Below are positions 40,238 through 50,124 of a stretch of 64,000 nt of DNA, in pieces. The notes beneath the pieces are model-generated. The model was not told the origin of the DNA and searched no databases. It was given only the letters and a program-made list of their open reading frames with translations. Every line of letters starts with the position of its first letter. Position 1 is the stretch's first letter. The DNA comes from Promethearchaeia archaeon (GTDB lineage Archaea > Asgardarchaeota > Lokiarchaeia > Sigyniarchaeales > SOKP01): assembly GCA_029856145.1 (NCBI GenBank), contig JAHQWK010000004.1, forward strand, positions 64,001-128,000. Reading direction: 5' to 3'. The position numbers were made by a program, and so were the translations under genes.

Positions 40238-40762
40238 TTATTTTCTCATAAATGTAGGAAGCATTAAGGAAAAAATTTCTGCAATCATTCTTAATTTCGT
40301 TTTCTCCTGAATTTTTGTAACAATTAAAATCGATTTTGACAACTCTTCTTTATCTAAAGATCCTCCCGCATAAACTGCTTGGTCAGTATTAAATACTAAT
40401 AGAAATTTTACATTAGGATTGTTTATAACGCTTATTCCTTGAGTAAGTTTTAAATCATCATAAATTGGCATATAGCTTTTAGGGATATCGCTTCTGTCAT
40501 TAGTAATTAGAAGCACTGGAATCCCTCGTTCAACAGCTCTTTTAAGTTCTTTTGCATAAAAGCTATCGATACGTGGAGTTATAATATTCAATTGATCATT
40601 TGTTGAATTAATCAAATTAATCAAAAGATCATTCAAGACATTTTTCTTTTCCGCTCCTCCAGAAGATTCTATATCTACCATTCCTACTAAAGTCATTATC
40701 TTCTTTTCTAGGTCAGTTATCTGTGCTCGTAATTTCTTATTCTCAATCCTCAACTGTAGCAT
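40238..40762 (-). CDS. Short coiled coil plus PLD/TrmB-effector-like domain lacking HKD
   Basis: LINLINSTNDQLNIITP, LKRAVERGIPVLLIT and AVYAGGSL match the PLD-like fold. No HxK catalytic motif. Confidence 0.6.
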   Translation of the reverse strand: MLQLRIENKKLRAQITDLEKKIMTLVGMVDIESSGGAEKKNVLNDLLINLINSTNDQLNIITPRIDSFYAKELKRAVERGIPVLLITNDRSDIPKSYMPIYDDLKLTQGISVINNPNVKFLLVFNTDQAVYAGGSLDKEELSKSILIVTKIQEKTKLRMIAEIFSLMLPTFMRK

Positions 40763-40876
40763 TCGATCATTCGATATTCGATATCAACTCTTTTTTTGTA
40801 TTAATAATGAATGATTTAAATTATAATTATATTAATATTTTTTATTTATTGATTTTTGCTAAAGGAAAAATTGAAT

Positions 40877-43468
40877 TCAAGAACCTATTTTTTTCCAAGG
40901 TTTTCCAAAAAGTAAATAGCTAGATATTGCTAAACTACTTCGTAAATCTATATGTTTAATACCAGTATCTGAAGTCGAATCTTTAACCTGTTGTTCTACA
41001 AGTTTTTCCATTTTAGTTGCGATACATTGTTGACGTGCCTTCAGGAGTGAAACACCTTGACTGTTATTGTTGAAAAAATTCATAAAGAAATTTGAGATGA
41101 TTTGTTTTGTTTCATCATTAAAAATCGGATAATTTTTTGAAACAATTCCAGTTATCCTATTGTAATCAAATTGAGCAACGATATCTCCAAATGTCCTTAA
41201 GGTGTTCCTTAGCTTCTTACCTTCAATATCATAAACTTGGGAATTTAAAAATATCAAGGGCTGATTTTTTGAATTGTTCTGACTTAGTATATGATTAATT
41301 TCATTAAAAGTTAAAATTTGATTATCATTTGTAAGGAAAAAACTATTTTTGGGGCTCCATTTTGAGTAAAAAATATTTCCAACAAATACTATGATATGGT
41401 ACATGTCAGTTGATAAATTTGATAAAATATTTTCCCGTGTTGAATTGGCTCCTAATAAAGTAGCCATTTGGTTAATTTCATTTCTTTGATTAAAGAAATT
41501 TATTATATAATTCAATTCCTCTGCTCCAGCTTGAAATGGATAAATTAATTCTTTCTGTTTGGTTTTTTCATTCCATTTTACAGGACTTTTAGAATTAATT
41601 TATTCAATTACTAAAACATTATATACTTTATTAGATGCCTCAGTTAAAGGTTCCTTGGGCACTTCATCCTCAAAAGCAACACCACCAAGTGGGGCCTCAC
41701 CTATTTTGTATGCACTTGAATATTTTAATAAGAAAAAATTATTATCATAAATAAGATCGAAAGGTATTGTCATGCTATCTAATATAAAATAAAATTGAGG
41801 TATTTGATTCAAACTTTCGATCTTAAATGACTTAAAAAAATCTCTAATTAATTTTGGCAGAAAAAAATATAATAATTCACCAAACTCTTTCAGATTGAAA
41901 TGGTATTTCCGATATTCCGATTCATAGAAAAGTTCATTATAAATTTCAATTAGTTGAGAATCATTCCAGAATTCATCAACAATTGTTCCTTGAATTATTT
42001 AATTTTTAACTGAAATTATTCTATAGGAAATCATCCCATAAGAATTGATTCTTAGAATTATCTGCTTTATGCTAAAGTCTTTGTGAAATAATTGCTTTTG
42101 ATTGTTTTCATCGTTAAAAGTATATATCTCTTTTTTCATAGATTCTGTTTCAGTATATAATACCCTCAGATCTGTTATTTTTATACTAAAATCCTTATCT
42201 AAATATAGAAGTATTTTTTGTGCAATGTTATAATTTTGTTCCTCAAATAGAGCACGATAAAACATCATTCTCCAAAAATCTTTCTGTTCTAAAGAAAAGA
42301 ACATAGACTTAAATTGCCAAAGGATATTGCATGTGTAAAAATAATGAAAGAGTTGGGTATTTGTTTGAGGTAATTTTAAGTGATTGCTTAGTTTTTCTAA
42401 TGATTGAAGTAAAAATTTCTTTTCTTTCATATCCACAAATTTTTTACAGGCTTCAACCCATAATTCAATTAGAATGTTATCATAGGATAAATCAGTTTTA
42501 TACATAAATAAATCTTCTAAGAAATCATATATCTCATACGCAATTTCAAAACGATTTCTATTAATTGAAAAATCGATAAATTTTCTAATATAGGTGACAG
42601 CATCACCAAATGATTGGTACTCTTGAATTTTAAAGAATATATTGCGAATAAAGATAATAATCCACGAATATTCACTTATATCATTTAAATAATAAATCAA
42701 TTCTTCAAGATCAACCAAAATAGTATTAAAACTTCTTTCATTAATTGAAATTCTACTGATACTGCTAAATTCGTTTTTTAAATAACCTGGAAGTCTGTTT
42801 ATTAAAATTTTATTGATTATACGTACAAATTCGGCAGAATCTTCCATTAATTTATACTTTAAACAAACATTCTCTAATAGTATATAAATAAATAATGCTC
42901 GTTTGCTTGGTTCTATGTCAAATATCGTTTTACTTATACTCTGCATACTCAAATGGAAATATTCTGAAGGCACTACTGATTTTCTTAAAAAGATTTGTAA
43001 TATCTGTAATTCAAATAATCTCTGAAAATCATCTCTTTCATGCAACTTTGCTGAAAAAGAATTAATGAATTTAGTTATTCCTATTTGGGATAAGTCCTCC
43101 ATTTTTATAAATTCTTGTAGAAGATTAGTGCAGAAATTATTAAATAAATAAAAATCATCTAATTTAGATAAAAATGAAAAAAATCTTTTATACGCGTCAA
43201 TATATCTGATTAAATCAATCTCAACTTTTCCATCCTTATGTTTAATTAATGAATTTAAATACATCCACCAAGAATTAGAAATAATCATAATTAACTGATG
43301 CTTTTTCTGAATATCAAGCCAATCATTCTTCGCTATTTCAAAACTTAGATCATCTAATAATTTTGATGCCCATAAATGATTAGCAGCATATAACAGCTTT
43401 CGAGCTGTTATAATTTTGTTTTGGAAATTAGTTAAAAATTCTTTTTTCAAATCCGTACTAACAGACAT
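40877..43468 (-). pseudogene. Helical-repeat plus degenerate CHAT (caspase-like) domain protein, 863 codons with two in-frame TAA
   Basis: ORFs 41999-43468, 41600-41812 and 40877-41515 share one frame, and the sequence between them translates without other stops. CHAT-like motifs IPFDLIYD..F, VLVI, ATREN-like STREN, GVSLLKAR and YLLFGKP. Confidence 0.8.
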
Positions 43469-43486
43469 AAGTATTTTGTTATATTA

Positions 43487-48458: not shown

Positions 48459-48740
48459 AATTATAATTTAATATTTTCTATAGTATTTTAATATATTATA
48501 AGTGTTTAAGCTTAAAATTTCTATCAACAATTATTTATTTTTTTTATAAATATCAATCTAATATCAGTGTAAGATAGTTATCTAGAATTGATATTATAAT
48601 AGACATAACTATCTTTATATTAAAATTTAACAATATTGAGATAATCTTGCAAAAATTTTTGTATTCAATATCAAGAAAAAACTCTTTGTAGAAGAATATT
48701 ATGCAACTGAATGGTCTAAATTGATTTCAGCTTATTTATT

Positions 48741-49130
48741 TCATTTGATTGGATATCGTTTGAGAATTTCTCCTGCATAATACCTAAAAATTTTAACTAT
48801 CTTTCCCAAATCTGCAATTTGCCTTGATGCTCCCATTAGAAAGAATCGTCCAGCAGCACTTAGAATTATAAATCCATTGTCACCTCGTAAAACGACTTCA
48901 AGCATATCTGTGAATCCTAAAGTTGCAATTGCATCGGATCCTGACTGAACAACTACAGCGCTCAGACTGGAGAATAGGTCGGGATCTATATTATATCCGG
49001 GAATAGCGCTGAAAGCTAATCTTAAACCCTCTCGAGTAATAAGAGCTAACGCCTCAAGCTCACTGTACTCTGTGATACTGCCCAAAAAATTACTCAACGC
49101 ATGTGCTTCATCTGGTGTCAGGTCACTCAT
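48741..49130 (-). CDS. Roadblock/LC7 domain protein
   Basis: LEALALITREGLRL, DPDLFSSLSA, EVVLRGDNGFIIL and DLGKI motifs. Confidence 0.88.
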   Translation of the reverse strand: MSDLTPDEAHALSNFLGSITEYSELEALALITREGLRLAFSAIPGYNIDPDLFSSLSAVVVQSGSDAIATLGFTDMLEVVLRGDNGFIILSAAGRFFLMGASRQIADLGKIVKIFRYYAGEILKRYPIK

Positions 49131-49284
49131 AATATAGATAAAAACTGTGTTTTAATTAATATAAATTATAAAATTCAAACTTAAAAATATATATTTCTTT
49201 TAAAATCTAAATCAAACTTCTTGAGTTGAAAATCTCAAAAATGTATGTAATACTAAGAATAAGATTAAAGGAAATAAATAATTT

Positions 49285-50124
49285 TTAATTTCCTTCTAAC
49301 TGCTCTTTGATTTGTTCTTTTAAGATTTCTCTTTTACTTTTTGTTTCAACTGGTTTAGATTTTGCGTTCGCGCGTTTTAGAAATTCAATTGCGATGATTT
49401 TACCATTTTCAGATAAAACTCGTGGTGAGTAGTCTTCAGCAAAAAAAATTCCTTCTGGAATCGCTCCAACCTTCGAGATTTCCTTAGTAACTTGTTTTTC
49501 TCCAAGGAATTGTTGTACTTTTTCAACAATTGAATAAGCATGATTTCCGATAATAATCAATTCTCGTTCAAAACCGGGAGGCATTTGAATTTCTTCTAGT
49601 TTTTGCATAACTTGTTGGAAATCTATTTGAGTCTGTTCTTGTATGAAATCAGGCATAGAACCTTCACCCCGATATAAAGGCCCTGTATTTTGTGCAGCAC
49701 GATCTTTGCTTCCTGCTATATTCATACCTTTAGCTGGCCTTGGACTTCCAAAAACATTTTTTTCTCTTATTGGATGCACATTTGAAGGGGAAATCTCTAC
49801 TGGTTTTATTTCCTGTGCTATTCCTGCTTCAGTTTGTCCTCCAATTAACTTAATAAAATCGGGTTCTTCCTCACTTTCATCAACTGGAACAACAGCATAA
49901 TGCATTCCTACTTGACCACGGATTTCTTGAGATCTTTTAGCTCCAATAAATTTTGACCTAACACTACTTTTTAATCCCTTCCATAGATATACTTTTCTTA
50001 CTTCATCTGCTACAAGAACATAACATTCATCCGTTTTTAAAACATCCTTAATTGAACCTTGAGTTGTTATCTCAGTTGTAGTCCCATCAGGATTAATAAG
50101 AAACAATTGTGGTATTTTAATCAA
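49285..50124 (-). CDS. Single gelsolin-domain protein with C-terminal extra domain (1DGelX-like)
   Basis: LKTDECYVL, VYLWKGLKSSVRSKFIG and VDESEEEPDF match the gelsolin repeat consensus. Confidence 0.85.
   Translation of the reverse strand: MIKIPQLFLINPDGTTTEITTQGSIKDVLKTDECYVLVADEVRKVYLWKGLKSSVRSKFIGAKRSQEIRGQVGMHYAVVPVDESEEEPDFIKLIGGQTEAGIAQEIKPVEISPSNVHPIREKNVFGSPRPAKGMNIAGSKDRAAQNTGPLYRGEGSMPDFIQEQTQIDFQQVMQKLEEIQMPPGFERELIIIGNHAYSIVEKVQQFLGEKQVTKEISKVGAIPEGIFFAEDYSPRVLSENGKIIAIEFLKRANAKSKPVETKSKREILKEQIKEQLEGN

Follow-up and report, generated by a model that had tools for sequence, protein, structure and literature searches.

The window analysed here is a stretch of 64,000 nucleotides (nt) from contig JAHQWK010000004.1 of a Promethearchaeia archaeon (genome of 3.55 Mb in 32 contigs), in which eight co-oriented genes occupy positions 40238-50124 of the minus strand. 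This stretch consists of two independent conserved blocks which are neighbours in only one Lokiarchaeia family. Block 1 is made up of gelsolin-like, roadblock and vWA genes, and block 2 of a coiled-coil (coil) gene, a divergent actin-related protein (ARP) gene, a CHAT gene and a PLD-like gene, headed in this genome by an AbrB-ACT gene. The coil, the ARP, the catalytically dead CHAT protein and the dead PLD-like protein form a unit found order-wide, and structure prediction supports binding between the ARP and the CHAT protein.

A conserved ARP-CHAT unit

The genes of block 2 and the AbrB-ACT gene are as follows.

40238..40762, minus strand: PLD-like gene, block 2; 174 residues, N-terminal coiled coil and a single PLD/Nuc-fold domain, no HKD motif
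40877..43468, minus strand: CHAT gene, block 2; 863 codons, catalytically dead, two TAA stops here
43487..44683, minus strand: ARP gene, block 2; divergent actin-related protein of 398 residues, Pfam Actin E 6e-44
44742..45605, minus strand: coil gene, block 2; 287 residues, Lys-rich tip, mostly disordered, with a conserved C-terminal helical/coiled-coil part of ~120 residues seen in alignments
45640..46041, minus strand: AbrB-ACT gene, head of block 2; 133 residues, NCBIfam PRK08577 E 9e-25, below cut-off

Three families whose ARPs are 27-31% identical share the order coil-ARP-CHAT-PLD, and all of the flanks differ. ARP and CHAT genes are separated by a median of 24 nt (maximum 87, 50 loci), are adjacent wherever both are present, and are jointly missing in two genera, g2 (3 genomes, one of them a single contig) and g5 (2 genomes). 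In these genera the coil gene directly adjoins the PLD gene, and neither an ARP nor a CHAT orthologue was found, the single-contig genome included. Coil and dead PLD are probably an older pair into which an ARP-CHAT cassette fits. The block is rearranged in genome G048, where the ARP gene is followed by an open reading frame that resembles the start of CHAT and runs off the contig, with the remainder at another contig end. In G051 (L091:12463-14400) a deletion took the ARP gene and the first ~650 CHAT codons; a 205-residue C-terminal piece of CHAT remains between the coil and PLD genes, and there is no such ARP. Paired loss of ARP and CHAT inside the home family was also considered and rejected, these cases being mostly assembly gaps in which the coil gene is missing too. 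Block 2 is presumably co-transcribed.

Searches of 301 genomes found members of the CHAT and coil families within the order only, and an Atlas feature search with the coil protein gave no usable match. In about 195 genomes outside the class these queries found no CHAT or coil orthologues and returned short CHAT-domain matches only, three candidates per genome having been scored for CHAT. Distant relatives of the PLD-like family occur in Helarchaeales, where their gene contexts differ. Full-length distant relatives of the coiled-coil/dead-PLD protein occur at L100, L104, L105, L107 and L109 (around P0137, P0143, P0142, P0148 and P0146), the named carriers being mostly labelled Helarchaeota. They adjoin a gene of ~130 residues which by eye looks longin/DENN-like, are not beside ARP or CHAT genes, and often lie near small-GTPase, JAB, E1/E2 and Ssl1-vWA genes. 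Another PLD-like paralogue follows a ~2,400-residue FG-GAP repeat protein at L101 and L106, upstream of a cluster of Ssl1-vWA, JAB, ubiquitin, E1 and E2 genes.

The ARP is 26% identical to the Lokiactin of the same genome (contig C7) and has the actin fold (Z 39.0, root-mean-square deviation (rmsd) 2.3, 339 aligned residues). The phosphate-1, phosphate-2 and adenosine motifs are present, and Gly17, Gly24, Gly171, Lys229 and Gly318 are near-invariant. The nucleotide site is degenerate, as the first-pass annotation of this DNA had proposed: the glycines of the nucleotide loops are kept, and the Asp154 and His161 sites are altered. At the position of actin Gln137 the family has Gln in 43 of 61 sequences, the Asp154 site is mostly Asn, and the His161 site never has His as the common residue. 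The D-loop is replaced by a longer, family-specific insertion, and an acidic tail takes the place of the C-terminal end of actin. These ARPs form one clade (support 100/99), separate from Lokiactin and two other paralogue groups, in a tree that included no eukaryotic sequences and gave a long-branch warning on the sequence from family f3. High identity to actin, a conserved D-loop and a place in the Lokiactin clade, by which a Lokiactin-type protein would be recognised, are thus all absent from the ARP.

Sharing both the clade and the four-gene context, the ARP is the orthologue of UYP47647.1 in Candidatus Lokiarchaeum ossiferum and of DSAG12_01479 in Promethearchaeum syntrophicum MK-D1, two cultured species in which the block 2 genes are NEF87_003930-003933 (ARP, NEF87_003932) and DSAG12_01478-01481 (CHAT, DSAG12_01480), respectively. 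The genomes of both species were recognised here by exact protein matches. The GenBank version of UYP47647.1 (307 residues; L075:12700-13800) is missing its first ~55 residues, the phosphate-1 loop included; the frame is open upstream, and the RefSeq version has 362 residues. A further actin paralogue of 506 residues (G000:C24:73893-75413) carries two zinc-ribbon-like insertions and has orthologues across the order.

An AlphaFold2 model of an intact CHAT orthologue (predicted local distance difference test score (pLDDT) 85.5) comprises a helical solenoid (residues 1-460), a pseudo-protease domain and a caspase-fold domain. Its top structural matches are Csx29 and separase, with SAVED-CHAT also matched, and Pfam CHAT is detected in 10 of 13 family members. 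The site had been called dead, and the alignment bears this out: 86 of 87 sequences have Asn698 at the His column, and all of them lack Cys at 741-745. The class-level relative L097 (L097:1-717) keeps the catalytic His and Cys in the same columns. Two other class-level relatives (L098:3708-5372 and L099:4077-5741) are 554-residue proteins in which a Ras-like P-loop start is fused to a CHAT domain. The PLD-like protein is similarly dead, as had been claimed: the HKD motif is absent, 46 of 55 sequences have Asn at the His column and none has His, and no Asp stands at +5 after the Lys of the motif. A PLD fold is suggested for it by profile matches (PLDc_2 E 4.7e-5, below cut-off; NucT profile E 0.003) and by Atlas PLD clusters (0.86-0.89). 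The dead sites of block 2 are fixed across the order under purifying selection (nonsynonymous divergence about 0.05-0.16, synonymous divergence about 0.7-1.5).

Complex prediction with CHAT residues 1-612 and ARP residues 7-380 gave a score of 0.71, and the best of three controls scored 0.00. Of 80 solved complexes 58 reach the score mark used, as do 2 of 110 mismatched pairs; these counts are rough here since custom alignments were used. The runs agreed in at least 95% of contacts, with a partner pLDDT of at least 82. The predicted contacts join solenoid residues 18-141 to ARP residues 42-61, 76-81, 219-221 and 259-262, which by alignment to Lokiactin correspond to the replaced D-loop, subdomain 2 and the tip of subdomain 4. 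In actin these parts make up the pointed-end face, used for filament contacts. In a deep alignment the ARP residues at the interface show slightly higher conservation than the remainder (0.76 vs 0.69, p 0.03). The first-pass annotation had suggested an actin-related complex with pseudo-enzyme partners and had looked to predicted interfaces as a check; for the ARP-CHAT pair such an interface is found, with reproducible contacts, and the complex is supported as a prediction. No similar complex among solved structures turned up for the CHAT profile.

Two blocks that meet in one family

Block 1 contains three genes.

46299..48458, minus strand: vWA gene, block 1; 719 residues, CDC48N-like domains, Pro-rich repeat linker, vWA with intact DxSxS
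48741..49130, minus strand: roadblock/LC7 gene, block 1; 129 residues, Pfam Robl_LC7 E 6.5e-6, above cut-off
49285..50124, minus strand: gelsolin-like gene, block 1; 279 residues, one gelsolin-like domain and a C-terminal extension, 1DGelX-like architecture

All eight genes are present and co-oriented as first described, and the spacings of 34, 58 and 18 nt (AbrB-ACT to coil, coil to ARP, ARP to CHAT) are correct. The remaining gaps are 154 nt between gelsolin and roadblock, 282 between roadblock and vWA, 257 between vWA and AbrB-ACT, and 114 between CHAT and PLD. The flanking NAD(P)HX repair and methyltransferase genes have the same orientation and gaps of similar size, and the run of eight therefore has no natural edges. 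The domain calls also hold, with Pfam matches above cut-off for roadblock, vWA (VWA E 6e-9) and actin, and weaker ones below it for gelsolin (E 0.013, residues 28-90), CDC48_N (E 0.003, in the vWA gene), ACT/AbrB, CHAT and PLDc_2. Two descriptions needed narrowing. The 'polyPro' tract is indeed Pro-rich, a repeat linker with 41% Pro, but contains no long polyproline run, the longest being four prolines; the 'polybasic' protein, encoded by the coil gene, is basic only within its first ~20 residues (11 Lys/Arg), the remainder being charge-neutral.

The first-pass annotation had read the eight genes as one amino-acid-responsive module coupling GTPase signalling to an actin-related complex, with gene order in other Lokiarchaeia as a test. 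That order is not conserved outside the home family, where the stretch falls apart, and a single module is not supported. Within the home family most of about 50 loci retain the whole eight-gene order, and the NAD(P)HX repair and methyltransferase flanks are conserved about as well as the eight genes. In the single-contig genomes of MK-D1 and L. ossiferum the gelsolin-roadblock-vWA trio lies 310-320 kb from the ARP block, and the AbrB-ACT gene 225-310 kb from it. The positions in MK-D1 are 1,315-1,319 kb for the trio, 995-1,000 kb for the ARP block and 772 kb for AbrB-ACT; those in L. ossiferum are 4,894-4,898, 4,584-4,588 and 4,277 kb. The three parts are likewise in three distant places in genome G032. 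The gelsolin orthologue adjoins roadblock in MK-D1, L. ossiferum, G032, G030 and G026, and the vWA gene is missing from the locus in G146, G148 and L057. Genome G030 (G030:C16:173277-177118) has an inverted roadblock gene lying between gelsolin and vWA. Insertions of more than 600 bp occur at the junction of vWA and AbrB-ACT in 11 of 35 home-family loci, vs none of 50 between ARP and CHAT. As a synteny baseline, 78% of neighbouring pairs are retained within the genus, 45% in a distant genus within the family and 29% in MK-D1 (17 of 58 pairs, with a single run of at least four genes in 400 kb).

AbrB-ACT is linked to block 2 in the home family (f1), in family f3 and in genus g5, and unlinked in MK-D1, L. 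ossiferum and G032. Because it is found in these three lineages, the link is probably old. The protein is PRK08577-like, with ACT and AbrB domains both detected, and is a probable transcriptional regulator. To regulate the block 2 operon by binding DNA would be the simpler role for it. A scan of bacterial type for promoters and terminators gave chance-level matches only.

Two links that had been proposed for block 1 found no support. A connection to profilin through polyproline is at odds with the characterised Loki profilins, which do not bind polyproline (PMC8410842). The link to GTPase signalling lacks a GTPase gene anywhere within the eight-gene locus; MK-D1 GTPases are generally outside operons with roadblock genes, and therefore gene layout does not reveal their partners (PMC10933270). 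Beyond the PLD gene, a type IIG-like methyltransferase gene (window 37951-40134) follows in 37 home-family loci, and is unusually stable for a gene of restriction-modification type.

Two stops in the CHAT gene of this genome

The CHAT gene had been taken for an intact open frame, which it is not; two in-frame TAA stops had been overlooked.

41999..42001, minus strand: premature TAA at codon 490; GAA (Glu) in same-species contigs
41600..41602, minus strand: premature TAA at codon 623; TCA (Ser) in same-species contigs

Eleven same-species contigs, 99.4-99.98% identical to the window, have the CHAT gene intact, and a same-species protein differs from that of the window solely at codons 490 and 623. 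Differences private to the window number 3 in 9,197 bases, all within the CHAT gene, two of them nonsense (G>T and C>A) and one silent. Among the matches listed in the search of the class, every other full-length CHAT orthologue is free of internal stops. Background rates of internal stops are 7 in 126,000 codons in this genome, 4 in 122,000 in G005 and 0 in 145,000 at other loci. Of all single changes 6% create a stop, as do 15% of G>T/C>A changes, and because so few single changes do so, two stops in one gene are unlikely as scattered error. Very recent inactivation in this strain and local consensus error are about evenly balanced as explanations.

Recoding of the stop codon was rejected, as the TAA columns are Glu and Ser and the same-species contigs carry sense codons; elsewhere in the genome, internal stops stand opposite Tyr, Gln, Arg, His and Leu. 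Long-term decay was also rejected: among 40 relatives this gene departs least often from conserved columns, and amino-acid changes are not enriched downstream of the first stop. A truncated product of 489 residues would retain the part predicted to bind the ARP. Another gene, at G000:C22:85890-87599, contains two TGA codons in frame whose counterparts in G005 are Arg, which suggests CGA>TGA nonsense changes.

A proposed complex, its rivals and known systems

We propose, and consider reasonably probable, a non-enzymatic adaptor complex in which the CHAT solenoid keeps the ARP monomeric and the dead protease end is left available for docking another protein. The opening ~140 residues of the solenoid would grip the subdomain-2 insertion and the subdomain-4 tip of the ARP, and covering the pointed-end face in this way would block self-polymerisation. 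The ARP would then act as a monomeric subunit, like the nuclear ARPs, and the dead caspase-fold end may be a docking surface for a further partner. The proposal builds on the observed synteny, paired absence, fold and dead sites, together with the predicted interface; from these we infer the monomeric state of the ARP and the participation of the coil and PLD-like proteins. Several points weigh against it. The paired absences of ARP and CHAT may amount to just two or three events, and most f1 genomes without the pair also lack the coil gene, probably through assembly gaps. The interface was predicted from custom alignments, with the ARP of the window and an 85%-identical CHAT orthologue from which residues 613-863 were left out, and three of four tests for conservation of the interface fell short of significance (p 0.05-0.35).

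Another reading is that the ARP-solenoid complex caps the pointed end, or templates nucleation, of Lokiactin filaments, like Arp11 in dynactin or Arp2/3. The predicted interface, limited to subdomains 2 and 4, leaves the barbed-end cleft free for an actin subunit, and a gelsolin gene lies nearby in the home family, with a gelsolin paralogue after the PLD gene in G030. We nevertheless think this rather unlikely, as the identity to Lokiactin is low, the cleft region has diverged, the C-terminal end of actin is replaced, and the ARP-CHAT pair is missing from lineages that retain Lokiactin. For co-immunoprecipitation of L. ossiferum Lokiactin, the main text of one study names a profilin, gelsolins and an ARF GTPase as enriched, and no ARP or CHAT protein (PMC13716822). 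A more elaborate form, in which the ARP and pseudo-separase are an independently evolved counterpart of Arp2/3 or Arp11, coil and dead PLD are further subunits, and AbrB-ACT ties expression to nutrient state, seems to us decidedly unlikely. It is also unlikely that the ARP and CHAT proteins are co-regulated in one pathway with no direct binding. Neighbouring genes often encode products that do not bind each other, and the interface is weakly conserved, but the contrast with the controls, the reproducible contacts, the exceptionless adjacency and the paired absence all speak for contact.

A single eight-gene module has in its favour that the order survives throughout the home family, even at ARP identities of about 46-50%, where the baseline is 45% of pairs, and that the link between AbrB-ACT and coil recurs in three lineages. 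Its dispersal to three places in MK-D1, L. ossiferum and G032, the equal conservation of the NAD(P)HX repair and methyltransferase genes, the insertions between vWA and AbrB-ACT, the loss of vWA from three loci, the missing GTPase gene and the indifference of Loki profilins to polyproline (PMC8410842) make it very unlikely. Block 2 could also be a decayed or decoy anti-virus system of TPR-CHAT protease, PLD nuclease and methyltransferase, since the closest folds are Csx29 and NucT-type nucleases and the type IIG-like methyltransferase gene comes next in the home family. This is highly improbable, given that the four block 2 proteins have no PADLOC match (library from 2023), that both catalytic sites are dead throughout the order, in genes evolving under purifying selection, that the genes are single copy in a fixed position with an ARP tree along family lines, and that the methyltransferase is unlinked outside the family.

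Asgard archaea carry several actin relatives besides Lokiactin. UYP47647.1 has been described as one of three non-Lokiactin ARPs of L. ossiferum, whose transcription is severalfold below that of Lokiactin and whose distribution is patchy; the passages of that account which deal with it give no function, neighbours or partner (Rodrigues-Oliveira et al.; PMC9834061). Our analysis adds a candidate partner, so that one archaeal ARP gains a named candidate and a predicted residue-level interface in two cultured species. In published literature on Asgard ARPs, CHAT/separase-type proteins and ARP gene neighbourhoods, no description of an ARP-CHAT unit was found. New here are the ARP-CHAT interface prediction with controls, the separation into two blocks as judged by baseline synteny, the confinement of the unit to a single order and the broken CHAT gene of this genome.

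The closest layout to that of the CHAT protein is Csx29 of Craspase, with which it shares a solenoid, pseudo-protease and caspase fold (Foldseek E 6e-12 to 7zoq), and residues 467-863 also align to separase 5fc2 (Z 15.2, rmsd 4.2, 291 residues). Unlike these two, the CHAT protein has Asn for the catalytic His and no Cys, and its predicted partner is an ARP rather than Cas7-11 or securin. Whole-chain TM-scores to them are low (0.22-0.27), which points to a different solenoid geometry.

Eukaryotic ARP complexes have altered polymer faces, and the ARP is held by a dedicated helical partner. Their ARPs (Arp4/8 in INO80, Arp7/9, Arp11 of dynactin, Arp2/3) share with that of the window a divergent actin fold (Z 31-36), but no HSA helix, dynactin or ARPC homologue was detected in the unit described here, and the predicted binding is at the pointed-end face. 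In the crenactin-arcadin and ParMRC/MamK systems an actin-family gene is clustered with its own regulators, and those actins form filaments; family scans of the block proteins gave no likeness to arcadin, ParR or MamJ. The gelsolin-like protein, a member of block 1 and outside the ARP unit, has the same architecture as 1DGelX of Thorarchaeota, one gelsolin domain with an extension, which also occurs in Lokiarchaeota (Akil et al., 2020; PMC7444086), a likeness of layout. If the proposed complex is real, archaea too have recruited ARPs into non-enzymatic complexes, by way of a dead separase/TPR-CHAT-like scaffold. As the unit is found in one order only, it is more likely to be a parallel invention than the ancestor of eukaryotic ARP complexes.

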